Shown here: one piece after another, positions 184 to 19,403 of the stretch
Position numbering within the stretch: the stretch's first letter is position 1
Layout of the letters: each line of letters starts with the position of its first letter
Assembly (NCBI GenBank): GCA_963764725.1
Contig: CAVXTM010000014.1
Coordinates: 1 to 19,867 of the forward strand
From: an uncultured Gammaproteobacteria bacterium
Lineage (GTDB): Bacteria; Pseudomonadota; Gammaproteobacteria; JACCXJ01
Direction: 5' to 3'
DNA length: 19,867 nt
The notes under the pieces: generated by a model
Told to the model about the DNA's origin: nothing
Seen by the model: the letters and a program-made list of their open reading frames with translations, nothing else
Databases searched by the model: none
Translations under genes and position numbers: made by a program

Positions 184-2346
184 ATGCCTCAGCAGTTCGA
201 CGATGTCGGTGATTGTGTCGACGCCGCGCTCCGGCGTGTCGGCAAGCGCATCGTGCTGGCACTCCCGCTCGCACTCGGCAACCCCGTGCCGCTGGCAAAT
301 GAGTTCTACCGGCGCGCGTTCCGCGATCGGTCGATTACGCTTAAAATTTTCACCGGCTTGAGCCTGCGCAAGCCGCAAGCGTCGGGCGAGCTCGAACGCC
401 GCTTCCTCGATCCGTTCGTCGCACGGGTCTTCGGCAACTACCCGGAGCTCGACTACGTCGCGGCCGTGCGCGCGGGCCAGGTGCCGCCCAACATCGAAGT
501 CATCGAGTTCTTCCTCGAGCCGGGCGCCTATTTGCGTAATGCTTACGCGCAACAGCATTACCTCAGCGCAAACTACACGCATATCGTCCGCGAGCTGCTC
601 GCGCACGGCGTGAACGTCGTGGCGCAGATGATCGCAACGCGGGTGAGCGAGGGGCGCATGGAATACAGTCTGAGCTGTAACCCGGACGTGACCGTCGATC
701 TGCTACCGGAGCTCGACGCCGCCCGCCGCGGCGGGCGCGAGATCGTCACCATCGGCGTGGTGAATCGCCAACTGCCCTTCATGTTCGGCGGTGCCGAGAT
801 CGCGGAGAGCGCTCTGGATTTCGTCGTCGAACATTCGCGTTATGACTACGATCTGTACTGCCCCCCGAACCTCGCCATCGGCACGGTGGATTATTTGATC
901 GGGCTCTACGCCAGCGCCCTGGTGAAGGACGCGGGCACGCTCCAGATCGGCATCGGTGAGCTCGGGGATGCGATCGTCTATTGCCTGCAGATGCGGCATC
1001 AGCACAACGCTACCTGGCGAAGCGTCCTCGACGACTGTCGCGTGCGCGAACGCTTCGGTCCGCAGATCGAGCAGATCGGCGACACGGAGCGGTTCGAGCG
1101 CGGCCTCTACGGCTGCACCGAGATGTTCGTCGACGGCTTTCTGGATCTCTATCGATCCGGAATCCTCAAGCGGCGCGTGTATAGCCACGCGCTTGTCCAA
1201 CGGCTGCTCAACGAAGGCAAGATCACGGAACGCCTCGACTCTCGAACCCTCGCACGGCTACTCGAGGCGGGACTGCCGCCGCTCATCAATGAAGCCGCAT
1301 TCGCATCCTTGCAGCAGGTGGGTATCATTGCGGCCGAGTGCGGTTACGAGAGCGGCCGTATCCGCACTCCACAGGGCGAATGGCTGCCGGCGGACCTCTC
1401 GGACGCGGTGACGCGGGAACGGCTTGCGCACGAGTGTCTCGGCACGCATCTGCGCGAAGGCGTGCTGCTCCACGCTGGCTTTTTCCTGGGACCCAAAGGC
1501 TTCTATGCGGCGCTGCGTGACCTACCCGAAGCCGAGCGGCGGCTTTTCGACATGACCGGCGTGGGCTTCATCAACCAGCTCTACGGTAAGGACGCGGCGC
1601 GGCGCATCGCGCAGCGCCAGCATGCGCGCTTCATCAACACTGCGATGATGATCACGCTCACCGGCGCGGCGGTTTCGGACACCTTGGACGATGGGCAAGT
1701 CGTGAGCGGCGTCGGCGGACAGTACAACTTCGTGTCGATGGCACATGCGTTGCCGGGCGCGCACTCGGTGTTGGCGGTGCGCAGTGTGCGCACCAAGGCC
1801 GGCCGCACGACCTCCAACCTCGTGTTCAGTTCCGGCCACCCCACTATCCCGCGACACCTGCGTGATGTGGTGATCACCGAGTACGGCATTGCGCAACTGC
1901 GCGGCAAGACGGACAGCGAGGTCATCGCAGCGCTGCTCAACATCGCCGATGCGCGCTTTCAGGACAAGCTGTTGCGTCAGGCACAGGTTGCCGGCAAACT
2001 CCCGCGCGACTACCGGATCCCTGAAGCTCACCGCAACAACACGCCCGAAGCGCTGGAGAGGGCGCTCGCGGGACATCGCCGCGCGGGATTGTTCTCGGCG
2101 TTTCCGTTTGGCAGCGACTACACCGCCGAGGAATTGGTGCTGGCCCAGGCGTTGAAGCGGCTGCGCGAGCGGATGGATACGGCGGCCGGCAAGGCCGCGG
2201 CCGTGGCGGCGGCGCTCCTGCGGCCGGGGATTTCGGCGCCCATGCGGCCGTATCTGCAGCGCATGCGGCTCGACCGGCCGCAGAACATGCGCGAAAGGCT
2301 GTTGCAGAGACTGGTGGCGAGCGAGCTTCGGGGGCTTCTGGGATGA
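184..2346 (+). CDS. Acetyl-CoA hydrolase/transferase family protein (long ~720 aa form)
   Basis: 720 aa uninterrupted ORF with GC-rich codons. Motifs LQIGIG, SGVGGQYNFV and VVITEYGIAQLRGK are typical of the acetyl-CoA hydrolase/transferase family. Confidence 0.9.
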   Translation: MPQQFDDVGDCVDAALRRVGKRIVLALPLALGNPVPLANEFYRRAFRDRSITLKIFTGLSLRKPQASGELERRFLDPFVARVFGNYPELDYVAAVRAGQVPPNIEVIEFFLEPGAYLRNAYAQQHYLSANYTHIVRELLAHGVNVVAQMIATRVSEGRMEYSLSCNPDVTVDLLPELDAARRGGREIVTIGVVNRQLPFMFGGAEIAESALDFVVEHSRYDYDLYCPPNLAIGTVDYLIGLYASALVKDAGTLQIGIGELGDAIVYCLQMRHQHNATWRSVLDDCRVRERFGPQIEQIGDTERFERGLYGCTEMFVDGFLDLYRSGILKRRVYSHALVQRLLNEGKITERLDSRTLARLLEAGLPPLINEAAFASLQQVGIIAAECGYESGRIRTPQGEWLPADLSDAVTRERLAHECLGTHLREGVLLHAGFFLGPKGFYAALRDLPEAERRLFDMTGVGFINQLYGKDAARRIAQRQHARFINTAMMITLTGAAVSDTLDDGQVVSGVGGQYNFVSMAHALPGAHSVLAVRSVRTKAGRTTSNLVFSSGHPTIPRHLRDVVITEYGIAQLRGKTDSEVIAALLNIADARFQDKLLRQAQVAGKLPRDYRIPEAHRNNTPEALERALAGHRRAGLFSAFPFGSDYTAEELVLAQALKRLRERMDTAAGKAAAVAAALLRPGISAPMRPYLQRMRLDRPQNMRERLLQRLVASELRGLLG

Positions 2347-3643
2347 GAGCTTGTAAAAAATCTGCTGCGCTCGGGATCTCGCGTTCCGGGTAGTGTCCTA
2401 ATTTGGGCTATAGCATAACTTGACTAATAAAGGAGTTGTGTGCCCTTATGTTATCGGAGGTTGAGAGCAAGGTTACCTTGCGGCTACGCCGGTCGCTCGG
2501 TTCTCAGTCTACTGCTGACTATGAGGAGTGGGCACGTATGGCTTGGACAAAGCCGCAGTATAAGCGCGGTGATGTAGACAGAGCAGGCGATTTTCTTGTT
2601 AATGAACCGTCAATAGCGTCTGGTTTTGCCGAACGCGATGACACAGAAGGTTACATTGAACAAGCGGATCGGGCATACACCATAATCAATAATTGGCGTT
2701 CATCGCATAGCTATCCTCTTCAAGCTATTAAGATGACTTTGCTCATAAGAGCGAAGCGGGTGGATAGTCAAGCTATCATGGCCCAGCGCATCAAGCGCCT
2801 CTCCTCCATTGAGGCAAAACTAAGTCGCAACGAGAACATGAAGCTATCGCAAATGCAGGATTTGGGCGGATGCCGCGCTGTCCTTATCACTTCCCGCCGC
2901 GTTAGCGAGTTAGTCGATATTTACGAAAAAGCCGCAGCAAAGAATCCGCGTGATCGATCAGAGTTTGTTAAGAAATACGACTATATCAAAAACCCTAAAA
3001 CTGACGGTTATCGCAGTGTGCATTTCGTTTATAAGTACAGGACAAATGCCGCAGGCCTGGAGATCTATAACGGACTAAGAATCGAAATCCAGTTGCGTTC
3101 GCGGCTTCAACATGCGTGGGCCACCGCTGTCGAGACGGTATCAACTTTCACGGGCCAAGCATTGAAATCAAATATCGGTGATGAAGCGTGGAAGCGGTTC
3201 TTTGCTCTAATGGGAAGTGCTGTTGCACGTAGAGAAGGAACTCCAACAATTCCCAATACGCCTAAGAACATGAGTGAGCTGAAGGAGGAATTAAGAGAAT
3301 GTGCCCGTCAGCTTGACGTTCAAAACCGATTGAGGATTTATGGTGACGCACTCCAAGGAGTACCAGGCAGGGCGGCTTTCCCAGACGCGAAGTATTTTTT
3401 GCTTGAACTTGACTTAACCGGAAAACGGATTCTCGTAAGAGGCTATAGTGAAGAGCTATTAGAAAAGGCAACGACCGATTATCTGGCGGTAGAAAAGTTA
3501 GAAAAATCAGGCACGGTTACTGACGCCGTATTGGTGTCCGTTGACTCGATGGCTAATCTTCGACGGGCTTATCCAAACTATTTCTTGGACACCCGCGTTT
3601 TTGTTGACGCTGTTAATAAGGCAATTGCGTAATTCACAAGCTC
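2347..3643. mobile_element. Putative non-autonomous IR-bounded cassette carrying the CapRel-like gene
   Basis: GAGCTTGT (2347-2354) and ACAAGCTC (3636-3643) are exact 8-bp inverted repeats. TGA flanks both ends directly (2344-2346, which is the upstream stop codon, and 3644-3646). The interior is visibly more AT-rich than both flanking genes, and there is no transposase inside. Confidence 0.55.
2538..3632 (+). CDS. RelA/SpoT-domain small alarmone synthetase, CapRel-like fused toxin-antitoxin
   Basis: Start chosen at ATG 2538 behind GAGGAG (MAWTKPQY...). SYNTH motifs QRIKRLSSI, MQDLGGCR, DYIKNPKTDGYRSVH and EIQLRSRLQHAWATAVE are present. The C-terminal extension ends in VLVSVDSMANLRRAYPNYF (YXXY motif). 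Confidence 0.88.
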   Translation: MAWTKPQYKRGDVDRAGDFLVNEPSIASGFAERDDTEGYIEQADRAYTIINNWRSSHSYPLQAIKMTLLIRAKRVDSQAIMAQRIKRLSSIEAKLSRNENMKLSQMQDLGGCRAVLITSRRVSELVDIYEKAAAKNPRDRSEFVKKYDYIKNPKTDGYRSVHFVYKYRTNAAGLEIYNGLRIEIQLRSRLQHAWATAVETVSTFTGQALKSNIGDEAWKRFFALMGSAVARREGTPTIPNTPKNMSELKEELRECARQLDVQNRLRIYGDALQGVPGRAAFPDAKYFLLELDLTGKRILVRGYSEELLEKATTDYLAVEKLEKSGTVTDAVLVSVDSMANLRRAYPNYFLDTRVFVDAVNKAIA

Positions 3644-3668
3644 TGAGGCCAGTGTCACATCCGCGTCA

Positions 3669-9240
<5,572 letters not shown>

Positions 9241-9309
9241 GAGAAGTGGCGGAAAGCTAAGGAAGCCGCGAGTATAACGGGCAACGCAGAGCGGAGCACC
9301 GGTGAACGA

Positions 9310-9632
9310 TACGTCGTGCTCGCGCCCAACCGCTGGAAGCTCGGGAAAGCGGTGCGGGTCGTGAACCAGACGCTGAACGGATTAGGGTTGGAACAACATC
9401 CCGAAAAAACGTTTATCGGTAGGATAGAACAAGGCTTTGATTTTTTGGGCTATCACCTTCGTCCAGACAGGCTTGCCGCGGCCAAGACGGTTGAGCGTTT
9501 TCGTTGAACGTGCGAGCCCGCTTTATGAGCGCAAGCCGGGGGAACTTTCGACTCCTCCCGGCTTGGACGGTATGTGCAACGGTGGCTCAGGTAGGCCCGA
9601 GCTGGGTTTCGGAGGGAGTGATAGAAGTGTGA
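9310..9632 (+). pseudogene. 3' remnant of a group II intron-like reverse transcriptase (copy A)
   Basis: Translates VVLAPNRWKLGKAVRVVNQTLNGLGLEQHPEKTFIGRIEQGFDFLGYHL (RT6/RT7 region: HPxKT, GFDFLGY), followed by frameshifted C-terminal sequence. No YxDD motif and no N-terminus. Confidence 0.8.
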
Positions 9633-9730
9633 CCCCATTGCCACAACTATCTCATTGTGGGCGGTGGCTGCCTTGGCACACCTCCATTATTAATCTATCA
9701 AATACCGTTGATTTCTATCCATTGCACTTA

Positions 9731-10030
9731 CTAACAATGGCCACACGGCCAATTGTTATCGATGTTAAATGCTTTGTTGTATATTGCTCTATGCATAGCC
9801 ATTTCTATGGCGTGCGCCATTGTTGGTGATATATAAATTCCCCCTCTGGTCTTATCCAGCTGGATTTCTGTTAATCTCATTTTTATGTTTGAGTCATTAT
9901 TTCGGTCCTGCACCGTTTGGTAACGATGTCTGGTAGAAGTGCTTGATTCATTCGCAGCCACCACTGGTGTTAGGCCTGTGAGGGCGACCATCAGGCTAAA
10001 GGTTGCAATGATATATTGAAGCTGTTTCAT
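9731..10030 (-). CDS. Secreted double-glycine peptide precursor 1 (99 aa)
   Basis: ATG 10030 behind AAGGAGAGAGAA. Signal MKQLQYIIATFSLMVALTGLTPVVAA; pro-region ends LTEIQLDKTRGG; 35-aa core IYISPTMAHAIEMAMHRAIYNKAFNIDNNWPCGHC. Confidence 0.85.
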   Translation of the reverse strand: MKQLQYIIATFSLMVALTGLTPVVAANESSTSTRHRYQTVQDRNNDSNIKMRLTEIQLDKTRGGIYISPTMAHAIEMAMHRAIYNKAFNIDNNWPCGHC

Positions 10031-10266
10031 TTCTCTCTCCTTCAATAATGAACTAACAAACATCGGTACACGATGGTCCCTGCCGGTTCTCTCGCCTCTA
10101 CCACCCAATAAGGAATATTATTTTATATAGAGGCGCTGCCCGGGTCCCAGCTTGCAACGCGAATATAGAGGGTGACCGCAATTTGGTCTGTGAAATATTT
10201 CACGGAAAAAGTGTGAAATATTCACAAAATCTATTGTGGAACACTTCTAATAGAGGGACCATTGAG
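10031..10266 (-). repeat. Conserved upstream module, copy 1 (RBS, 5' leader, promoter)
   Basis: Aligns with 10793-11046, 11863-12095 and 12898-13110. Contains the invariant 32-mer ACGATGGTCCCTGCCGGTTCTCTCGCCTCTAC (10070-10101, + strand). Confidence 0.95.
10162..10226 (-). promoter_or_regulatory. Putative class II CRP/FNR-family-activated promoter for precursor 1
   Basis: TGTGA-AATATT-TCACG (10189-10204) plus TGTGA-N5-TCACA (10212-10226). TATATT -10 on the minus strand (10167-10162). The first site is centred 29.5 bp from the -12 base, i.e. about -41.5. Confidence 0.65.
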
Positions 10267-10276
10267 AAGGAAGCGA

Positions 10277-10474
10277 GTAGGGCGGAAGCCCGCTTTGTCG
10301 GCGTTCCGCCGCATGTGTCCACCTCTGCTCCCAGCCGTGCCATCGATAACGCCATCTCCATCCCGATCGGAAGGGTGGCATCTGTAGGGCCGATGTCCGC
10401 AGGGCGATCCGCCGCACGGGCCGCTTCGGCCGGCAGCCGTGCAGCGGATCGCCAAAAAGCGGCTTCCGCACTAC
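10277..10474. repeat. Cluster of GTAG-type REP-like palindromes (REPIN-like)
   Basis: GTAGGGCGGAAGCCCGCTTTGTCGGCGTTCCGCC at 10277, a degenerate GTAGGGCCGA...GATCCGCC at 10384, and an inverted copy ending at 10474 (minus strand GTAGTGCGGAAGCCGCTTTTTGGCGATCCGC). Confidence 0.65.
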
Positions 10475-10513
10475 CAAACGTAATCTAACGAGTTGTGACC
10501 TTAGGACTAACCA

Positions 10514-10792
10514 TTATTTCCATACAGCTGGCGTCCACTTACCGTCGCCAGGTTTACACAATTGACATCCACCACTACCCAGTATGTTTCGCTGGATAAC
10601 ACCCAGATTTAACATTCCCCCGTGAACCCTGTCCATTTCAATGGATGACAGAATGGATAGTTGAGGCTTTGCTGCGGCCGTTGTTTTAGGGGAATTCATT
10701 GACGTTCGGACTGCATCCGCGGCCACCACTGCTGACAGACCCGTGAGCGCCACTATCAGGCTAAGGGTTGTGATATATTTTCGGCGTTTCAT
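10514..10792 (-). CDS. Secreted double-glycine peptide precursor 2 (92 aa)
   Basis: ATG 10792 behind AAGGAGAGAAAT. Signal MKRRKYITTLSLIVALTGLSAVVAA; pro-region ends LSSIEMDRVHGG; 33-aa core MLNLGVIQRNILGSGGCQLCKPGDGKWTPAVWK. Confidence 0.85.
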   Translation of the reverse strand: MKRRKYITTLSLIVALTGLSAVVAADAVRTSMNSPKTTAAAKPQLSILSSIEMDRVHGGMLNLGVIQRNILGSGGCQLCKPGDGKWTPAVWK

Positions 10793-11046
10793 ATTTCTCT
10801 CCTTCAATATTGCATTAACATACATGGGTGTACGATGGTCCCTGCCGGTTCTCTCGCCTCTACCACCCAATAAGGAATATTATTTGATATAGAGGCGCTT
10901 CCCGGGTCCCATCTTGCAACGCGAATATAGAGGGGTGAGCGGAATTTGGTCTGTGAAATATTTCACAGAAAGAGTGTGAAATATTCACAAAATCTGTTGT
11001 GGAACACTGGGCCAATGGAACACTTTCAATGAGAGGGTCCATTGAG
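10793..11046 (-). repeat. Conserved upstream module, copy 2
   Basis: Invariant 32-mer at 10832-10863. Similarity to copy 3 continues ~90 bp further (to ~11135 vs ~12178). Confidence 0.95.
10924..10989 (-). promoter_or_regulatory. Putative class II CRP/FNR-family-activated promoter for precursor 2
   Basis: Perfect 20-bp palindrome TCTGTGAAATATTTCACAGA (core 10952-10967), second site TGTGA-N5-TCACA (10975-10989), and TATATT -10 at 10929-10924. The first site centres at about -42.5. Confidence 0.65.
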
Positions 11047-11189
11047 CGTGTTTAACTAAATCCAACCTTGCCCTGACTCATTGCGCAAAATGAGGGGGTT
11101 TCCTGAGGGTGGGCATTAGCCTCCTAATCTGTGGACCTCCTGTCGCTCCGACGCTGCGCGTTCCCCTGGAGCCCGCGGGAGGAGACCCC

Positions 11190-11432
11190 ACCAGACGCTG
11201 CACGGATTAGGGTTGGAAAAACAGCCCGAGAAAACGTTTGTCGGAAGGATAGAAAAAGGCTTTGAGTTTTTGGGCTATCACCTTCGTCCAGGCAGGCTTG
11301 CCGTGGCCAAAGACGGTTGAGCGTTTCATTACGTACGAGCGGGCTTTATGAGCGAAAGCCGGGGGAGACACTTTCGAGTCTCCCCGGCTTGGTAGGTACG
11401 TACAACGGTGGTTCAGGTGGGCCCGAGCTGGT
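11190..11432 (+). pseudogene. 3' remnant of a group II intron-like reverse transcriptase (copy B)
   Basis: Nucleotide-level homolog of 9365-9605, reading QTLHGLGLEKQPEKTFVGRIEKGFEFLGYHLRPG... Confidence 0.8.
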
Positions 11433-11583
11433 TATGGTTGCGTGCGCTTGGAGAACGGGGCCAGCCTGGTTTTCGCCTCGCTGAGCGTGAGGTCAAGCTT
11501 CGCCAAACCGTCGCCGAGTATTGACGTGGCCAATTTCTTCAACTCGATCCCTCACAGGTTATGATGATGTGTCCGGTGACCCC

Positions 11584-11862
11584 TCATAGCCCCGCACATG
11601 CTATGTGTCTGCAGGTTACTCCGCGGCCATCGGAACCGTAGGGCGGGGGTGAGGGTTGTTTGTCCTCATTTATCATACCACCATATAATTTGTCCATTTG
11701 CTCGGGCGACAGTCTATGCCCTGGGCTACTCTCGAACTGCCGCGTGTCTGGTTGGATTCGCTCACCACGTGATGTTCTTTCTGCATCCGCCACTACCACG
11801 GGCGACAGACCAATGAGCCCCATTATCATGGTCAAGGCTGTGATATATTGTCGCTGTTTCAT
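11584..11862 (-). CDS. Secreted double-glycine peptide precursor 3 (92 aa)
   Basis: ATG 11862 behind AAGGAGAGAGAA. Signal MKQRQYITALTMIMGLIGLSPVVVA; pro-region ends LSPEQMDKLYGG; 30-aa core MINEDKQPSPPPYGSDGRGVTCRHIACAGL. Confidence 0.85.
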   Translation of the reverse strand: MKQRQYITALTMIMGLIGLSPVVVADAERTSRGERIQPDTRQFESSPGHRLSPEQMDKLYGGMINEDKQPSPPPYGSDGRGVTCRHIACAGL

Positions 11863-12095
11863 TTCTCTCTCCTTCAATAATGAATTAACAAACATGGGTA
11901 CACGATGGTCCCTGCCGGTTCTCTCGCCTCTACTACCCAGTAAGGAATATTTGATATAGGCGCTGGGCCCCGGGTCCCATCTTGCAACGCGAATATAGAG
12001 GGGTGAAAGGATTTGATCTGTGAAATATTTCACGGGAAAAGTGTGAAATATTCACAAGAGCTGTTGTGGAACTCTCTAATAGAGGCACCATTGAG
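11863..12095 (-). repeat. Conserved upstream module, copy 3
   Basis: Invariant 32-mer at 11902-11933; same block order as the other copies. Confidence 0.95.
11992..12056 (-). promoter_or_regulatory. Putative class II CRP/FNR-family-activated promoter for precursor 3
   Basis: TGTGA-AATATT-TCACG (12019-12034), TGTGA-N5-TCACA (12042-12056), and TATATT -10 at 11997-11992. The first site centres at about -41.5. Confidence 0.65.
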
Positions 12096-12203
12096 CGTGT
12101 TTAACTAGGTCCAACGTAGCCCTGACTCATTACGCAATAAGGGATTCCTGAGGTGGGCGCTAGTCTTCTAATCCCTGGATTGGCGGGGGACTTTGTGTCG
12201 TTT

Positions 12204-12391
12204 GTCCAGGCAGGCTTGCCGTGGCCCAAAAGACGGTTGAGCGTTCGTTGAACGTGCGAGCCGGCTTTATGAGCGGAAGCCGGGGGAGGCACTTTCGAGT
12301 CTCCCCGGCTTGGTAGGTACGTACAACGGTGGTTCAGGTGGGCCCGAGCTGGGTTTTCGGAGGGCGTGGTTGAGGTGGGACGCCCCATGCC
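12204..12391 (+). pseudogene. 3' remnant of a group II intron-like reverse transcriptase (copy C, shortest)
   Basis: Nucleotide homolog of 9461-9632 and of ~11286-11432 (GTCCAGGCAGGCTTGCC...GGCCCGAGCTGG). Confidence 0.75.
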
Positions 12392-12621
12392 TCATGACTC
12401 ACGATTCACCTATGTGGCCCATGCCGGTCGGCTCCTGTCGTTAGATCTCTCTGAGTTTCTCAGCTCCAGTTTCGGTGCCGCGCTCGAGATTGTGATCTTT
12501 TAGACCCTCGTGAAGGCCAACCCCGCCGAAGCTGAGGCGGTCAAGTCCCTCATCGGGTGACCTCAGCCCACTCCTAATGCGTGCAGCACGCGAGCGCCTT
12601 GACTATGTTGGTGGGGCTCAG

Positions 12622-12897
12622 TTACATGTTACATGTCATTGTACATGAACCGTTCGAGCAGGTTATACGGATGGCACAAAAAAGCGCTTTTGCGGCCCAT
12701 CCCGGAAGTCCTAGCCCTCCGCCGGTGACTGCGTCCATTTGGTGTGCCGTGAGTTCGATTTTCTGGGGTGGGACGGGTTCGGATTGAGAATGCGCGTGTC
12801 GCACTTCTTCTCCTGCAACATCCGCCGCCACCACTGGCGACAGACCACTGAGGACCACTATCAGGCTAAAGGCTGTGATAAATTGTCGCTGTTTCAT
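12622..12897 (-). CDS. Secreted double-glycine peptide precursor 4 (91 aa)
   Basis: ATG 12897 behind AAGGAGAGAGCA. Signal MKQRQFITAFSLIVVLSGLSPVVAA; pro-region ends LTAHQMDAVTGG; 31-aa core GLGLPGWAAKALFCAIRITCSNGSCTMTCNM (4 Cys). Confidence 0.88.
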   Translation of the reverse strand: MKQRQFITAFSLIVVLSGLSPVVAADVAGEEVRHAHSQSEPVPPQKIELTAHQMDAVTGGGLGLPGWAAKALFCAIRITCSNGSCTMTCNM

Positions 12898-13110
12898 TGC
12901 TCTCTCCTTCGATACGAATTAAAAAAACAGAGGTACACGATGGTCCCTGCCGGTTCTCTCGCCTCTACCACCCAATAAGGAATATTTGATAGACGCGCTG
13001 GGCCCCGGGTCCCATCTTGCAACGCGAATATAGAGGAGTGAGCGGAATTTGGTCTGTGAAATATTTCACAGAATTTGGTGTGGAACACTTTAAATAGAGG
13101 GACCATTGAG
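12898..13110 (-). repeat. Conserved upstream module, copy 4 (only one operator palindrome)
   Basis: Invariant 32-mer at 12937-12968; the second TGTGA site is absent. Confidence 0.95.
13027..13072 (-). promoter_or_regulatory. Putative class II CRP/FNR-family-activated promoter for precursor 4
   Basis: Perfect palindrome TCTGTGAAATATTTCACAGA (core 13055-13070) and TATATT -10 at 13032-13027. The site centres at about -42.5. Confidence 0.65.
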
Positions 13111-13370
13111 CGGGCAGAGCAGTGCCAGGAGTCGCCGCCAGGCTCGGCGCTCCCCGCTACATAAAAGCACGAATGAGAGGTTCCCGCGGATCCCACCGAG
13201 GTATCAGTTGAGATTCTGCATTGGATTTCTTATCCTTTTACTTCGCACAGGGAAAGCTAATGTGTAACCTCAACTATTGCACGCTTGCTGAACGCGTTAC
13301 TGCGCGAGGCGCGGTGCTGACGGCGGGTTGGCGCCCGCCTCGTCCAAGGAGATGCCGCCCGACTTCATTC

Positions 13371-13988
13371 ATGCGAACTTGGATCCCCATTGCTCTGCTC
13401 CTCAGTGCCGCGGCCGGGGCGCCCGTGCGGGCCGTCGAACGGGGGCCGGTTAAATCGCTCCTGGAAATGCGGCGAGATCGAGTGGTGGTTCAGAAGTGGG
13501 ACTTAAGTTGTGGCGCCGCGGCGCTTGCCACTCTACTGAATTACCAGCACGGCGACCCAGTTGCGGAGAGGGAGATCGCGCGGGCGCTGATGCAACGCCG
13601 GGAATACCTGGCCGATCCGTTGCGGGTGCGGGTGCAGCAAGGGTTCTCTCTGCTCGACCTCAAGCGCTACGTCGATAAGCGGGGTTATGAGGGCATCGGC
13701 TACGGCCGGCTTACGCTTCAGGACCTGATCGAACAGGCCCCCATTCTGGTGCCGCTCAGCCTGCACGGTTACAATCACTTTGTCGTGTTCCGCGGCAGGC
13801 GCGGGGATCGGGTACTGATTGCGGATCCCGCCTGGGGGAACCGTACCCTGCGGGTAGAGAGATTCGAGGAGGCCTGGATTGACTCTCCAGAGATCGGTAA
13901 GGTAGGTTTCGTGGTGGTGGGGCGTGAGGGCAGCACGCCGCCTAATCGCCTCGCCCCTCGCGCTAGTGATTTCGTGATGTTGCGGTAA
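13371..13988 (+). CDS. Stand-alone periplasmic C39 family cysteine peptidase (FapD-like)
   Basis: Start at ATG 13371 gives a signal peptide MRTWIPIALLLSAAAGAPVRA. Catalytic motifs QKWDLSCGAAALATLL (Q, C), YNHFVV (H) and IADPAWG (D) are present. No ABC transporter domains. Confidence 0.92.
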   Translation: MRTWIPIALLLSAAAGAPVRAVERGPVKSLLEMRRDRVVVQKWDLSCGAAALATLLNYQHGDPVAEREIARALMQRREYLADPLRVRVQQGFSLLDLKRYVDKRGYEGIGYGRLTLQDLIEQAPILVPLSLHGYNHFVVFRGRRGDRVLIADPAWGNRTLRVERFEEAWIDSPEIGKVGFVVVGREGSTPPNRLAPRASDFVMLR

Positions 13989-14011
13989 GCCATCAATCAG
14001 AAAGGACGCAA

Positions 14012-15289
14012 ATGACACCACCCAGGGGTTCGCGCCAGCTGATGCAAGGCGCGGCCTTAGGCGCATCTTTCGCTTTGGTGGGACTGGTTGTGGCCGGGCC
14101 CCAGACAAAGCAGGCCGGCTCTCATCCTCAGCCGACGATGGAGGAACTGATGCGAAGGCTCGAGGAGCGCGACGCCCTCATTGTTGATCTGCAGCGACGC
14201 GTTGGAGAGCTCGAGCGGCAAATCGCCACGCCGCCCGTTAACCCGCAACCGGTGGCTGCCAAGCCCGTGCCCTCAGTGCCGCCGGTAGCCTCATCGGCTG
14301 AGCAGAAGCCACCGAACGCGGAGCGTCGGAGCGACAGGATGTCGCCGGCCAGTACAGGGACGTACGCATCGACACAAGCCGAAGAGGCTCCAGCGGCTGC
14401 AAGCAGCGCGGCGCCGGCAGCGCCCGGCCAATTCGAGGTCGATGAGGAGGCCGCCGAGCGCGCGCTGGAGCAGACACTGGTCGTGACGGGCGCACTCCTT
14501 CTGCCATTTGGACAGGCCGACATCCAGCCCAGCTTCACCTATATCCGAAGCGAGGAAGAAGCACCTACCCTCTTAGCGCAAGGTGTGGCTGCATCGCAAG
14601 ATGTTCGCCGCAATACCTTCATCGCCGATCTTTTTCTGCGCTTCGGTCTACCCTTCGACTCACAACTGGAGGTCGGCATTCCTTATCGATATGTAGAGAA
14701 GCAAGTGGTCACAGAAGTAGATGTCGGCGCGCGGGCCGAGACGGAGTCTCATGGCTCCGGATTCGGCGATCTCGGTTTCGGCCTGGCCAAGGGGTTGCTG
14801 GAAGAGCGCAACTGGTGGCCGGATCTAATCGGTAGGGTGACATGGGATACTGACTCCGGTGAAACCTCCGATGACGGCTTTTCGCTTGGCGGCGGCTTCC
14901 ACGAGCTCCAGGGTTCGTTAACCATGACCAAGCGCCAGGACCCGCTGGTGTTCATCGGCAGCGCCTCCTATGGGACTACATTCGAAAAGGACGATATCAA
15001 TCCGGGCGACCAGCTTGGTTTCTCGGTCGGGGCGGTGCTGGCCGCCAGTCCTGAGACCTCGCTGCGCGTTGTTCTCAATCAGACATTCGTCAGCGAGCTG
15101 GAGGACGGGGATAGGACCATCAGCGGATCCGATCAGGTGTTCGGAACGCTGAACTTTGGGGCCTCCTCGATCATCGGCCGCGGGAAATTTCTCGACCTGA
15201 CGGCTGGGATAGGTTTGACCGATGAGGCCCCCGATTACTCAGCAGGGATTTCTCTCACGATTAGCTTCGACGTCCCCACTCGCTTCTAG
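14012..15289 (+). CDS. Outer-membrane beta-barrel transporter with N-terminal coiled coil (FapF-like)
   Basis: Hydrophobic N-terminus, heptad segment MEELMRRLEERDALIVDLQRRVGELERQIA, Pro/Ala-rich linker, helix EEAAERALEQTL, alternating amphipathic strands and a C-terminal Phe (SFDVPTRF). Starts 23 bp after the C39 gene. Confidence 0.82.
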   Translation: MTPPRGSRQLMQGAALGASFALVGLVVAGPQTKQAGSHPQPTMEELMRRLEERDALIVDLQRRVGELERQIATPPVNPQPVAAKPVPSVPPVASSAEQKPPNAERRSDRMSPASTGTYASTQAEEAPAAASSAAPAAPGQFEVDEEAAERALEQTLVVTGALLLPFGQADIQPSFTYIRSEEEAPTLLAQGVAASQDVRRNTFIADLFLRFGLPFDSQLEVGIPYRYVEKQVVTEVDVGARAETESHGSGFGDLGFGLAKGLLEERNWWPDLIGRVTWDTDSGETSDDGFSLGGGFHELQGSLTMTKRQDPLVFIGSASYGTTFEKDDINPGDQLGFSVGAVLAASPETSLRVVLNQTFVSELEDGDRTISGSDQVFGTLNFGASSIIGRGKFLDLTAGIGLTDEAPDYSAGISLTISFDVPTRF

Positions 15290-15297
15290 CATTCCTA

Positions 15298-16723
15298 CAT
15301 AGGTCGGATCTTTAAACCTATTGAATTATAAGTGGAACTTACGATGTTTCACTCGATCCCAATGAGCAATCGACCAAGATTAGCTCAAGAAAGGAGAGAC
15401 CGAGTGAAACGTACCAACGCTACCACGGCGGTAGGACGATTCAAGAGAGTATTTTCGGAGCGGGAGTTGAACCGATTGGGCAAAGCGGTGAGGTATTGCC
15501 AGCGTGAACGGGTAGTGACGCCGTTTCGGCTGGTGATGGCGATGCTCTCGACGCTATCGAGTAGAAAGGTCGAGACATTGGCAGATCTCCAACGCGGTTT
15601 CAATGCGTTGTTTGGGGAGAGCTTGGCCTACAAGCCCTTTCACAATCAGCTTTCCAAGCGTGGGTTTGGGGAGTTCATGCGGGCGTGCGTAGAGCGCTTG
15701 GTGGAGAAGCTCGTTCTCAAGGTCTTGAAGATCAAAGAAGGTCACGCCTTTTCGGAATTTCGGCGCATTGTGATCCAGGACGGAAGTTCCTTTGCGGTCA
15801 AGGACAGCTTGCGTGATGTTTTCCCCGGTCGCTTTAAGCGAGTGAGCCCCGCGGCGGTGGAATTGCACGTCAGCATGGATCTCTTGAGCGAGGCGCTCGA
15901 GCATATCACCCTAACCCCCGACACCTTCGGTGAGCGGGCCGAGCTTCCCGACCCTGGGAGTTTATCCGGTTGCCTATTGCTCGCCGACCGCGGTTACTTC
16001 AGCTTGCCCTATGTGGGGGAGATGATAAAGGCGGGGGCGAGCTTGGTGCTGCGGACCAAGACAAACCTCAATCCGTGGGTGGTCAACGCCTATGGGAAAG
16101 CGGGTAAGCGCCTACGCCGGTTGTGTGGGAAGCCGTTGCGGGAAGTGGTCGAACGATTTCCCAAAAAGACCCCGGTAGATCTCGATGTATGCTGGCGGAA
16201 TGCACAGCACCAACTCTCCTGTCGCCTGGTGGTGAGCTTCAATCCGAAGACCCGTGAATTCCGCTACCTCCTCACCAACCTCTCCCGCACCCGCTATGCC
16301 GCCGAGCAGGTCGGTTTGGCCTACAAGCTCCGCTGGCAGATCGAGCTCCTGTTTAAAGAGTGGAAATCCTACGCGAACCTGCATGCCTTCGACACCGGCA
16401 AATCCCGAGATCGCCGAAGGTCTCATCTGGGCCGCCATCGCCGCCGCGACGGTGAAACGTTATCTCGCGCATCTCACCCAGCAGCTTGCCCACGTGGACA
16501 TCTCTACCCGCAAGGTCGCCATGTGTGCGCACCATGTGATGAGCGGCATTGTAAAGGCTCTCCTCGATGGTCGCCTCTCTCGAATTCGTAAGGCAATCAA
16601 CAACGCCGTCGCCTTTCTTGCAACCAATGCCCGCCGGGCACACCCTCAACGCGACAGGCGAAGCGGACGCCTCGAACTGAATTTGGAACCAGTTTTCAAC
16701 GCGGCTTAAGTACCTAACCTATG
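15298..16723 (+). mobile_element. IS4-family insertion sequence (~1.43 kb)
   Basis: Imperfect terminal IRs CATAGGTCGGATCTTTAA / CATAGGTTAGGTACTTAA (13/18 identical). 10-bp direct repeat AGCATTCCTA at 15288-15297 and 16724-16733. Confidence 0.92.
15404..16709 (+). CDS. IS4-family DDE transposase, one +1 frameshift near 16400
   Basis: GTG start behind AAGGAG. IQDGSS, LADRGY and the IS4 YREK signature YKLRWQIELLFKEWK are present. The C-terminus (NPEIAEGLIWAA...) continues in the frame of ORF 16254-16709. Confidence 0.9.
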
Positions 16724-16932: not shown

Positions 16933-17433
16933 TCACTGGGCAATCCATCGCTGGACAGGGAGCGCTGGCATTGTAAAAATATCCGAGACTGGCCCCGTTC
17001 GCCCGTTCGCAAGGAAGTCGGTCAGCCTTGATGCCAGGCCCGCCGTGTCTTGGGTTTCGCAGGACCAGATGATCGCGACCGTCCACCCATCGGCTTCGAG
17101 TTCGGCTACTTTCCGTGCATCTCGCTCGACATTTGCGTCGAACTTGCGAGACCAGAAATCCTTGCGGCTCTTCGGCGTGCTGGCAGCCTTACAGCCCGAA
17201 TGCCGATGCCAAAAGCAGCCGTGAACGAAGATAGCTTTTCGTCGGATTGGAAACACTATGTCGGGCGTTCCCGGGAGATCTCGACGATGAAGTCCATATC
17301 GATAGCCAAGGCGATGAAGTAGCCGACGGACGGTCATCTCGGGCTTCGAGTCCTTCGGCCCGATTCGCGACATGAGTGCGCTTCTGTCCGCAGGTGAGAG
17401 AAAATCGGTTTCAATCGGATGTGGGCGGAGCAT
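16933..17433 (-). CDS. vsr: Very short patch repair endonuclease (start uncertain)
   Basis: DFLSPADRSALMSRIGPKDSKPE, DLPGTPDIVF, IFVHGCFWHRH and FWSRKFDANVERD are hallmark Vsr motifs. Confidence 0.92.
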   Translation of the reverse strand: MLRPHPIETDFLSPADRSALMSRIGPKDSKPEMTVRRLLHRLGYRYGLHRRDLPGTPDIVFPIRRKAIFVHGCFWHRHSGCKAASTPKSRKDFWSRKFDANVERDARKVAELEADGWTVAIIWSCETQDTAGLASRLTDFLANGRTGPVSDIFTMPALPVQRWIAQ

Positions 17434-19403
17434 AATCTTCGATCGCTTGAATGATTTCGTGGAGTTTGTCGACGAGATCACGATTACGCATATAGTCTTG
17501 GTACGTTTGGCGAGCCCCCCGTAGAAGCTCTTCATAGAAGACGATGCGCGCATTCTGTACTTTCAGCATGTCGTGGGAACGTGTCTTAGCGGCGTCGCTA
17601 GTCCAATCCGAGGGTTTCTTCCCAAGGAGGACGATGAACTGAATCGGCTCGTGGGCCGATCCTTGTGCTGCCAGAATTCGCTGCATGCCACTCAGATATT
17701 TTTCGATTTGGCCGATTAGCGCTGTCGTGCTGACCGTCCTTTCCGGTCGCTTCAATTCGATAATGACATGTTGGCCGGCCGTTTTCCGATAGGCGATATC
17801 GAGCCTTCCTCTTTTTCATCTTCCGGAAGCTCGGCGTCGATCTCGTTGAACAACGCCGTGACCGGACGCTCCATGATTTCGGTTCCATCTGCGCGCTCCC
17901 ATGCAGGATCGAGCAACCAGAGATGATTGAACAGATACTGCTGGATGGCTTTTTCGAGATCGTTGGAATCGACTTTTTCTTCGAGAGTGCGGATTACCTT
18001 GAATCCGTTGCTGAACAATCTGTCCGTAAAGATTAGCTTCGAGGTTATCGAGCTCCTTGAAAATTTCCAAGGCCGTTTGGATGTTCTCGTCGGTGATATT
18101 CTCGAGCGCGTCCAGGTTCTCTTTGGCCCGATAGAATTCGAATGCTAGCACCGCGTGCTTGATGAGTTGTTTCTGCTCGTTCAGATCGTCAAGCCGGATC
18201 CGGTTGATCTTACCGAGCCATTTTTTGGCCTTCGCCCGGGTGGGCGGGTTGAGTGTCGATCCATCTCTTCACGGCAGGGATCTCTAACGCTTTTTGGGCT
18301 CCTTCCTCGGTACGAAGTCTCTGCCATTCATTTTGGATGTGTTTCAGTTCGCGACCGATGAATCTCTTCAACCCTTGGTAGCGATCATCGTCTTCGACGA
18401 TTTTGTGACGGCTGCTCGTTGCAGCATCATCGTCTTTGGTGGTTCCCGGACCATCGTAGGTATCCAACCCATCGATACGCAGTTCTCCGATGAGATAGCT
18501 CGCATAGACGCCACGCTCCGAAAATTCCGATAGAATCTCCTCTTGTGCCATCTTGCCGCGCACGAAAATCGCGATGCGGTTCAAGTTGTCCCCGTCTTCA
18601 TCCCGTAGGTGACGTACCTCCTTCACCGTGCCTAGCCAGCCGTCGATTTGTGGATCTTTGTCCATGATCGCGCTCGTGCGGTCGAAATGCTGCGCTACCG
18701 AACATAAGCCGATGACTTCGGTCTGGTCGCCATACGTCCAGAGGTACTGAACCTTGTCGTAGTAATCGCGGTCGGCAGAGTAACTTCCTCTTCATCAACG
18801 ATGATGCGGAAACCTTCCGCAGCACCGATGACCGAGAAACGGCGTGCCAACCGTCGTTTGAGTGCCTGTGTCGTGCGGATCGTCTGCCTCTTCCGCAGTT
18901 CGGTCAGTACGATGCGGGTCCCACGCTCGAAGTCGATGCTTGCGACAGGGAGGGGGTCGGGATTGTAAGTCCCTTCCCCACCCGATTGCTCGATCCGCTG
19001 CCGGATATGCTCCAAACGCATTCTGAAGGCGCTTTTCTGCCCACCTTTCACGGTTTCGATATCGACGCATCCGGCGAACGAAAAGAGATACCTCCCGATC
19101 CCCTTGCCTGCCATCGGATGACGGCATTTTCCCGTAACCCCGGGCTGTCCATCGCGACGACGATATCCCACGGTCAGGAAACATCGGTTGACCTCTTCTG
19201 GTGTCATCCCTACCCCTGTATCGCGGATTCCAATCCGGTCATTTGTCCGGTCCCATTCGCATGGACCTCATCGGCGTCGGCATCCCATTCGTTCGCGACG
19301 ATCTCGGACAGAACTGCCGGGACGTTGCTGTAAGGTTGATGCCAGGATGCTCCAGGACGTTGAGGCTGATCGTCAGCGCAAAAGGAGGAGGTGGTTCCGT
19401 CAT
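17411..19403 (-). CDS. GHKL (HATPase_c) ATPase fused to a PD-(D/E)xK nuclease, HgiDII-like restriction endonuclease; many frameshifts
   Basis: Pieces across frames: MTEPPPPFALTISLNVLEH..., NVPAVLSEIVAN-WDADA (N-box), DTGVGMT (G1), GKGIG (G2), GTRI (G3), and near the C-terminus HLWLLDPAWER and GRLDIAYRKTAGQHVIIELKRP. The ATG overlaps the methylase stop (ATGA). Confidence 0.75.

Follow-up and report, generated by a model that had tools for sequence, protein, structure and literature searches.

Four peptide precursors with Sec-like signals and double-glycine-type leaders beside a C39 peptidase and a FapF-like barrel: a probable Fap-type export locus in an uncultured gammaproteobacterium

The stretch of DNA analyzed here (hereafter, the window) is the whole of contig C14 (19,867 bp) of an uncultured gammaproteobacterium, the genome of which (G000; 4.2 Mb in 19 contigs) is 96.9% complete. 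The window carries four small open reading frames (ORFs) for putative peptide precursors on the minus strand, divergent from a plus-strand operon of two genes, a stand-alone C39 cysteine peptidase (13371–13988, 205 aa) and a FapF-like outer-membrane protein (14012–15289, 425 aa; hereafter, the barrel), both of which have a signal-like N-terminal segment. The two genes of the operon are separated by 23 bp and, according to the ORF coordinates, no gene of the size of fapE lies between them, as had been stated in the original prediction made from this sequence. The positions proposed there for all six genes were also correct, except that the start codon of precursor 3 is the ATG at 11862 and not at 11859. 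On balance, we consider it probable that this is a two-step export locus of the Fap type with small, diverse peptides as its cargo, which would use Sec, a periplasmic C39 peptidase and a FapF-type pore.

The precursors are encoded at 9731–10030 (precursor 1, 99 aa), 10514–10792 (precursor 2, 92 aa), 11584–11862 (precursor 3, 92 aa) and 12622–12897 (precursor 4, 91 aa). Each has a Sec-like signal, in which M-K-Q/R-x-Q/K is followed by 17–20 uncharged residues and then by V-V-A-A-D/N. The next 34–38 residues lead to a 12-mer with L at −12, L/M at −7, D at −6 and GG at −2/−1, and the pro-region of all four ends with L-[ST]-x-x-Q/E-[ML]-D-x3-GG. The two glycines are residues 63–64, 58–59, 61–62 and 59–60 of precursors 1 to 4, respectively, and the remaining parts, the cores, comprise 35, 33, 30 and 31 aa and are mutually unrelated. 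There are two Cys residues at the C-terminus of core 1, two in cores 2 and 3, and four in core 4. Both the 12-mers quoted in the original prediction, with L at −12 and L/M at −7, and the core lengths given there were recovered from the ORF translations. Neither Pfam nor NCBIfam assigned the four precursors to a family, and the best ESM Atlas score for precursor 3 (0.79) was under the meaningful level. Besides the peptidase and the barrel, no ORF of the locus had a match in these two family collections, and genes for FapA, FapB, FapC and FapE are absent.

In textbook accounts, double-glycine leaders direct cleavage in the cytoplasm by ATP-binding cassette (ABC) exporters, and their consensus includes hydrophobic residues at −12, −7 and −4 and small residues at −2 and −1. 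Leaders of this type were found in 4/4 precursors and in 117/133 members of the precursor family. The latter was collected with two profiles: one of five distinct precursors, which retrieved 76 proteins from a collection of 5.8 billion, and one of 48 sequences, which retrieved 108 representatives from a 1.84-billion library (71 at E ≤ 1e-10). Eight long or multi-domain matches were removed from 141, leaving the 133 homologues counted here. Almost all matches were metagenomic; one came from a metagenome-assembled genome (MAG) of Methylobacter and one from a Burkholderiales MAG. The regular expression used for the leader fixed L at −12, [LMI] at −7, D at −6 and the final two residues, which were AG in 59 homologues, GG in 57 and MG in one. 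The canonical double-glycine site claimed originally is present in all four precursors, although about half of the family has AG instead. The positions left free were also strongly biased among the 117 leaders, with S/T at −11 in 111, E at −9 in 77, Q at −8 in 105 and V/I at −4 in 107. Judged from these sequences, the spacing of the family leader is that of a classical double-glycine leader; for leaders of this type, lv-x-GG is quoted in PMC5557850. Sec signal peptides have a positively charged n-region, a hydrophobic h-region and small residues at −3 and −1 of the cleavage site. A Sec-like pattern is visible by inspection and, as scored by our heuristic, was found in 104 of the 117 leader-bearing homologues.

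The combination of signal and leader was also scanned for with a composite detector, which requires a signal-like N-terminus and, within 75 residues, a GG-type 12-mer, the strict form of which is LxxxxMD...[AG][GAS]. Across the whole 4.2-Mb genome, the loose motif occurred in 50 ORFs and the strict form in six, and all six are precursors of the window locus or of its second copy on contig C4. The detector has false negatives, as it missed the seventh precursor of the genome. A reversed-sequence control of 1.03 Mb yielded one strict-form ORF, and the combined pattern is thus more than chance. A search for related loci in a collection of genome contigs, made with the precursor alignment, gave 78 pattern matches, none of which was confirmed.

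The cores of the family have a median length of 37 aa. Among the 117 homologues with a leader, the number of Cys residues is even (two or more) in 81 and odd in 8, and 28 have none. Because of this even parity, the paired Cys residues point to disulfides or paired metal ligands. The core of precursor 3 (type 3) is nearly unchanged in homologues with leaders that are 21–28% identical to the query (P0069, P0074–P0076), and it recurs in many metagenomic homologues, divergent leaders included. This retention argues for selection acting on the core. Two other forms were observed among the sequences collected. A metagenomic protein of 481 aa matched by the precursor profile (P0364) consists of seven tandem units, each with a cytoplasmic-type leader, I-E-L-S-E-E-D-L-x-A-I-x-G-G, and a short Cys-containing core, and looks like a polyprotein of double-glycine leader peptides. 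In one class of precursors (P0035, P0038, P0039, P0044, P0045, P0051, P0053 and P0317), the core repeats G-R-S-G-Q-P-x-x-V-N-[ST] and terminates with G-R-R; a remnant of such a core lies 3' of the barrel in the metagenome locus L026 (246–440).

The peptidase matched the C39 family of Pfam (PF03412) with 52.5 bits (cut-off 22, E 5.8e-14). The best NCBIfam model was FilB (NF050078; 106.4 bits, under its cut-off of 475), and the FapD equivalog model (NF058616) gave 92.1 bits, also under its cut-off of 330; the peptidase is thus related to FilB and FapD and is an equivalog of neither. The best solved relative in sequence is the double-glycine protease domain of an ABC transporter maturation and secretion (AMS)/peptidase-containing ABC transporter (PCAT) protein (6mpz, E 1.3e-5). 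C39 peptidases employ a catalytic Cys and His, usually accompanied by Gln and Asp; in an alignment of 38 homologous sequences, Q41, C47, H136 and D152 were invariant. Stand-alone homologues are numerous (5,862 proteins of 112–359 aa at E ≤ 1e-10), many of them 65–94% identical and derived from metagenomes. With its 205 aa the peptidase is unfused and has neither the transmembrane nor the ATPase domain of an ABC exporter, which sets it apart from PCATs. No PCAT was found in the 96.9%-complete genome, which has just two C39 domains, both of them stand-alone (in the window and in the C4 copy). Since there is no other C39 domain in the genome, no PCAT serves the precursor peptides.

Peptidase residues 22–205 (38-row alignment) were co-folded with residues 26–91 of precursor 4 (48-row alignment). 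The score was 0.76, compared to 0.26 for the best of three controls; this mark is reached by 58 of 80 solved complexes and by 2 of 110 mismatched pairs, which is a rough calibration with own alignments used. The runs shared at least 81% of contacts, and the predicted local distance difference test score (pLDDT) of the partner was at least 60. In the confident interface, peptidase residues 44–48 (including Cys47), 89–96, 109–115 and 134–137 (including His136) face precursor residues 45–62, that is, positions −15 to +2 around the glycines 59–60. The model supports binding of the leader and the double glycine at the catalytic Cys47/His136.

The barrel scored 26.5 bits against the Pfam family Phenol_MetA_deg (cut-off 22) and 28.7 bits against the NCBIfam FapF equivalog (NF058560), under its cut-off of 700. 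A phmmer comparison with the crystallized FapF chains gave E 9e-6. The AlphaFold2 model, made with 48 homologues (mean pLDDT 77.8), shows a helix at 43–72, a low-confidence linker at 73–140, a second helix at 145–158 and then a β-barrel of approximately 12 strands. The ten best Foldseek matches of this model were all FapF chains (E 2.4e-18 to 9.6e-16, template modeling score normalized to the target 0.74–0.83), followed by the COG4313 channel 4rl8. As modeled for the monomer, the fold is of the FapF type, with a coiled-coil helix, linker, plug-like helix and barrel; in FapF itself, a coiled coil in the periplasm, a linker that is disordered, a plug and a barrel of 12 strands have been reported (PMC5557850).

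Contig C4 carries the locus a second time: its positions 1920–7206 (L003) match positions 9049–15310 of the window, with a 97% identical peptidase and a 98.6% identical barrel. Its cargo comprises copies of precursor 1 (97% identical) and precursor 3, a fifth precursor (L003 4673–4939) with a leader ending in AG and a core without Cys, and a stray fragment of a type-4 leader (L003 2952–3050). Either a true duplication or the presence of two strains in one assembly could account for this copy. Among the 15 genomes of the order, precursors together with a more than 80% identical peptidase were found exclusively in G000 and G009 (the latter flagged as unpublished). A relative in the same family (G013) encodes an unrelated small protein (L006 592–906) with a Sec-like signal and a leader ending in T-E-G-G, which adjoins a 43–44% identical C39 peptidase and a 24% identical coiled-coil barrel. 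The same arrangement was observed in G001, G008, G012 and G014, which are flagged as unpublished, and similar ORFs were found in L005, L007 and L010 from unpublished genomes.

Six metagenome loci bear precursors. In L024, L026 and L027, the last two of which are near-identical to each other, the precursor is divergent from a 90% identical peptidase followed by the barrel; L026 carries one precursor, the peptidase and the barrel amid housekeeping genes. In L029, two precursors lie next to the 3' end of a barrel; L025 and L028, both shorter than 2 kb, show precursors alone. A search with the barrel alignment revealed 79 loci in Gamma-, Beta- and Alphaproteobacteria, including those of Nitrococcus mobilis Nb-231, Methylotetracoccus oryzae, Methylobacter luteus, M. 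marinus, Nitrosomonas sp. Nm166, Sulfuriferula sp. GW1, Thiohalocapsa sp. ML1 and Noviherbaspirillum massiliense. A C39 homologue is present in 72 of these loci, at most 1.5 kb from the barrel in 67 of the 72. Among the seven loci without C39, five end at a contig edge just upstream of the barrel. Sec-like ORFs with the strict motif occur in 62 of the 72 C39 loci, with a total of 167 such ORFs, 138 of them ending in AG; detector flags on the peptidase itself (9) and on unrelated ORFs (8) were excluded from this total. Most of the strict-motif ORFs in the C39 loci (140/166) lie at most 3 kb from the peptidase or the barrel. In these wider loci the leader stands directly behind the signal, and the mature part, with a median of 85 aa (27–173), is rich in Ala, Gly, Ser and Thr and lacks Cys in 115/167. 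Judged by composition, these proteins look like fibre subunits; ten of them compared to Pfam and NCBIfam gave no match above cut-off, with chance-level matches only.

The phylogeny of the barrel domain (a quick maximum-likelihood tree of 82 rows, none dropped, with midpoint rooting and the careful search unfinished) places the window, the C4 copy, L026 and L032 in one clade with a Shimodaira–Hasegawa-like approximate likelihood ratio test (SH-aLRT) support of 97. L032 belongs to a gammaproteobacterial MAG, and its cargo is a 36-aa Gly/Pro-rich peptide. This four-row clade is nested in a set of 15 rows (SH-aLRT 96), the other members of which have long cargo (8 rows) or no detected cargo (3 rows). 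The simplest reading of the tree would be that a machine usually dedicated to fibre-like proteins gained short peptide cargo in this twig.

Each precursor of the window is preceded by a conserved upstream module on the same strand, located at 10031–10266, 10793–11058, 11863–12110 and 12898–13069 for precursors 1 to 4, respectively; the last one is without the distal palindrome and abuts the divergent peptidase operon. The module contains two GTGAA-N3/4-TTCAC palindromes, a TATATT box and then a conserved leader of approximately 140 nt that includes the ribosome-binding site. The mean pairwise DNA identity of the five paralogues is 83% in the 230 nt upstream of the start codon, 77% in the signal-peptide codons, 54% in the pro-region and 49% in the core, compared to 48% in a shuffled-core control. 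The promoter, the 5' untranslated region (5'UTR) and the signal are thus conserved above the coding sequence, which is new here. In this genome, the ~230-nt module is found exclusively in front of precursors, and it is also kept in L003 and in the metagenome loci L024, L025, L026 and L028. In two copies the proximal palindrome, centred ~41 nt upstream of the start inferred from the TATATT box, matches TGTGA-N6-TCACA, which we take to be a consensus site; such a centre would presumably correspond to the geometry of a class II activator. As each precursor possesses its own strongly conserved copy of this module, the set is probably switched on jointly by one regulator.

RNA structure in the 5' leader was unsupported by RNAalifold on nine copies (33 pairs, one compensatory change, covariation term +0.38), and no Rfam family matched the whole window at the gathering threshold. 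A scan of 9200–13400 for sigma-70 promoters and terminators gave four promoter-like sites against 3.4 expected. In a screen of sequencing runs, at most 0.12 of the sampled words were recovered in any run. Contigs from two metatranscriptome runs of one study, one run guessed to be RNA and one DNA run cover, at 85% likeness, relatives of both the peptidase and the barrel as well as of stretches of the precursor region, and provide no evidence of transcription.

The export locus is embedded in DNA rich in mobile elements. An IS4-family transposase (15332–16591, plus strand), copies of which are present on contigs C9, C10 and C12, lies directly 3' of the barrel, and a Vsr-type mismatch endonuclease is located beyond it (16933–17553, minus strand). 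A repeated element was found 3' of precursors 1, 3 and 4 (9226–9605, 11190–11431 and 12201–12394). Its first copy overlaps a 93-aa ORF, the translation of which resembles the C-terminal part of a reverse transcriptase of the group II intron or retron type, with no Pfam match; the repeats may have been left by an element with a preference for insertion behind terminators. A diversity-generating retroelement was considered and rejected, both because the cores are unrelated at the shuffled level rather than variants of one template and because the reverse-transcriptase fragment is short (93 aa) and has no Pfam match.

In the remaining part of the window, the overlapping minus-strand ORFs 3669–5654, 5470–6939, 6813–7925 and 7888–9240 all have UvrA or ABC-ATPase domains, and the region 3669–9240 looks like one long UvrA-like gene that frameshifts or errors of assembly have split. 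The first ~190 nt of this gene lie inside the segment duplicated on C4. A plus-strand ORF at 2436–3632 (398 aa) with a RelA_SpoT synthetase domain occupies a patch of low GC content (47% against ~63% in the flanks), which suggests a horizontally acquired gene similar to those of small alarmone synthetases. The region 107–2340, which contains a gene of the acetyl-CoA hydrolase/transferase family, is 99% identical to positions 710251–712486 of contig C18, and this match reflects either a repeat or contig ends that overlap in the assembly.

Taken together, the homology of the peptidase and the barrel, the predicted fold, the recurrence of the neighbourhood, the absence of a PCAT and the co-fold make export by a two-step Fap-type route the best reading of the locus, every step of which we infer. 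The precursor would cross the inner membrane through Sec by means of its conserved N-terminal signal. In the periplasm, the C39 peptidase would recognize the pro-region through L at −12, M/L at −7, D at −6 and V/I at −4 and cut after GG, or after AG in about half of the relatives. The core of 30–35 aa would then leave via the FapF-like barrel of the same operon, the pore of which is probably gated by the coiled coil and the plug helix. The paired Cys residues would engage in disulfides or in metal binding, be it in the periplasm or once the core is outside. Much of the original prediction fits these data: the stand-alone C39 peptidase does carry a signal-like segment and has FilB and FapD as its closest models, the barrel is FapF-like by both sequence and model, the lack of a PCAT extends to the whole genome, the co-fold with precursor 4 brings the GG region to the catalytic residues, and homologous pairs of C39 and barrel co-occur with such precursors elsewhere (L024, L026, L027 and 62/72 of the wider loci). 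The proposed succession of Sec, periplasmic C39 and barrel is the best reading on the same evidence, with the reservation that the Sec-plus-leader design is general to a wide proteobacterial family, the usual cargo of which is fibre-like and of ~85 aa.

Several points weigh against this route. Each step of it rests on sequence and models, and the Sec-like signals were judged by inspection and with a home-made heuristic rather than by SignalP. Leader-bound C39 domains have already been solved, and the result of the co-fold may reflect likeness to those complexes and not this particular pair. Two of the 79 loci (L043 and L048) have no C39 homologue in the 8 kb upstream of the barrel, and in 10 of the 72 C39 loci no precursor was detected. 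Few independent lineages underlie the direct co-occurrence of this machine with short cargo, since its closest relatives are metagenomic and closely inter-related and form one clade of four rows in the quick tree. Moreover, FapF is described as passing unfolded chains (PMC5557850), and a disulfide-closed peptide might not fit a pore of this type. Finally, no immunity gene is visible in the locus, which is unusual for a bacteriocin locus. With no such gene, competition, signalling and Nap-like self-lysis are each conceivable as roles of the peptides.

Other explanations were weighed against the proposed export. In the precursor family, a spacer of 20–35 aa separates the hydrophobic segment from the leader motif, unlike in the wider family, where the leader stands directly behind the signal. 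This would be expected if the hydrophobic segment were an uncleaved signal-anchor that keeps the precursor tethered to the inner membrane and facing the periplasm; the cut by C39 after GG would then be the sole release, and the barrel would export the core. Cleavage by signal peptidase is putative here, which leaves space for such an anchor, but the small residues V-A-A-D/A-D-A after the hydrophobic stretch are conserved in homologues and resemble a typical cleavage site of signal peptidase I, and we regard the anchor as unlikely. Even less credence may be given to the idea that the peptides cut by C39 act in the periplasm or on the envelope of the producer, through self-lysis or regulation, and that the barrel is a minor exit or none. 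Such an action would agree with the lack of an immunity gene and with the Nap peptides, which are described as promoting autolysis of the producer (PMC11798529). However, the peptidase and the barrel share one operon with a 23-bp gap, their adjacency is kept in 67/72 related loci, and exit through NapF is what the authors of the Nap study propose (PMC11798529).

The family data are most difficult to reconcile with the notion that the small ORFs are functionless leftovers of decayed genes for the fibre-subunit cargo of a Fap-like system. The homologues include 117 intact ones with a complete leader, the type-3 core is nearly constant even where leaders fall to 21–28% identity, Cys parity is strongly even (81 against 8 odd), and the upstream module is 83% identical among paralogues, the cores of which are at the shuffled level. 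Decay would be in line with the position of the barrel in a short-cargo clade of four rows inside a set with mostly long, fibre-like cargo, with the transposase and reverse-transcriptase fragments around the genes and with the leader fragment in the C4 copy; we nevertheless hold it to be very improbable.

Going beyond the locus, we tentatively put forward a broader hypothesis, the chances of which we place slightly short of even: a proteobacteria-wide pathway in which a second leader, approximately L-[ST]-x-x-Q-M-D-x-V-[ST]-[AG]-G, behind the Sec signal would be both an address and a tag for cleavage, serving a C39 peptidase in the periplasm and a pore of the FapF type. In the lineage studied here, a cassette-like arsenal would have taken over this pathway, made up of short, hypervariable peptides that bind metal or form disulfides and are each joined to one conserved promoter/5'UTR/signal module. 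If this is true, Gram-negative bacteria possess a PCAT-independent route for bacteriocin- or pheromone-like peptides, and the long-sought substrate motif of FapD-type proteases has been named. The substrate of this class is left open in the relevant parts of papers from 2017 to 2026, and the leader described here offers a concrete and testable consensus. The three-part module of tagged peptide, peptidase and barrel could lend itself to the export of small peptides from Gram-negative hosts, and new peptides may be drawn from the ~100 natural paired-Cys cores of the family. Experiments are feasible in cultured relatives that share the machine, such as Nitrococcus mobilis Nb-231, Methylobacter luteus and Sulfuriferula sp. 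GW1.

Among the known systems, the Fap system of Pseudomonas, with a periplasmic C39 peptidase and a barrel of the FapF fold, both exported via Sec, and with cargo that has a Sec signal, resembles the locus, for which the periplasmic site of the peptidase is predicted and the signals are Sec-like. FapD is described as a periplasmic C39 protein with a catalytic Cys required for the secretion of FapC through FapF (Rouse et al., 2017; PMC5557850). According to the same paper, as far as its text on FapD goes, the target was unclear and this peptidase class uncharacterised at that time, and mature FapE is without its first ~70 residues, near GG/GA motifs. A 2026 preprint describes FapD, in the part concerned, merely as involved in precursor processing (10.64898/2026.10.01.755530). 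The present locus differs from Fap in the lack of genes for FapA, FapB, FapC and FapE and in the size of its cargo (30–35 aa), and, in agreement with the original prediction, the cores have no Asn/Gln amyloid repeats. No true FapD scored over the cut-off in the 301 genomes of the class; in operons of the class that come near to it (197–284 bits to the FapD model), a FapE-like protein bears the motif E-L-[ST]-x-x-x-[LM]-x-x-[LMI]-R-G directly behind its signal in 5/10 loci (L112, L113, L115, L117 and L118).

The putative Fil pilus system shares with the locus its best peptidase model, FilB (106 bits), and a weak barrel match to FilC (NF050079; 18 bits). These scores are far under the cut-offs (475 and 630), and the locus contains no pilin or usher genes; no literature on the Fil system was found. 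PCATs have a peptidase of the same family and act on leaders with the same hydrophobic spacing (−12, −7, −4) and Gly at −1, whereas here the peptidase is unfused and has its own signal-like segment, the precursors carry a Sec-like signal before the leader, and Ala is as frequent as Gly at −2. A Sec signal with a double-glycine leader behind it, acting as an export tag, was not found described in the open-access papers searched.

A close parallel, as judged by description, is the nap island of Neisseria gonorrhoeae, which encodes the double-glycine peptides NapA, NapB and NapC (mature forms of 36, 16 and 31 aa), the C39 peptidase NapP and the FapF homologue NapF (PMC11798529). In the model presented there, the peptides undergo periplasmic cleavage and exit through NapF, with no ABC exporter; the holin-like NapH is suggested for crossing of the inner membrane, a Sec signal being unnamed in the portion of the text concerned, and the peptides promote autolysis of the producer rather than killing of competitors (PMC11798529). 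Small double-glycine peptides, an unfused C39 peptidase, a FapF homologue and the absence of an ABC exporter are common to both systems. The nap island, as described, also includes NapH, the regulator NapR and the immunity-like NapI, none of which has a counterpart in this locus, in which each precursor bears a clear Sec-like signal and the cargo is hypervariable and Cys-paired. The suggestion of a new system was overstated: the combination of double-glycine peptides, C39 and a FapF homologue was already known from Nap (PMC11798529), and the locus belongs to a broad Fap/Nap-like family rather than representing a new kind of system. What is new is the class of short, hypervariable, Cys-paired cargo, the clear design of a Sec-like signal plus leader on peptides of bacteriocin size and a leader consensus that is sharp across the family and has Ala or Gly at −2.

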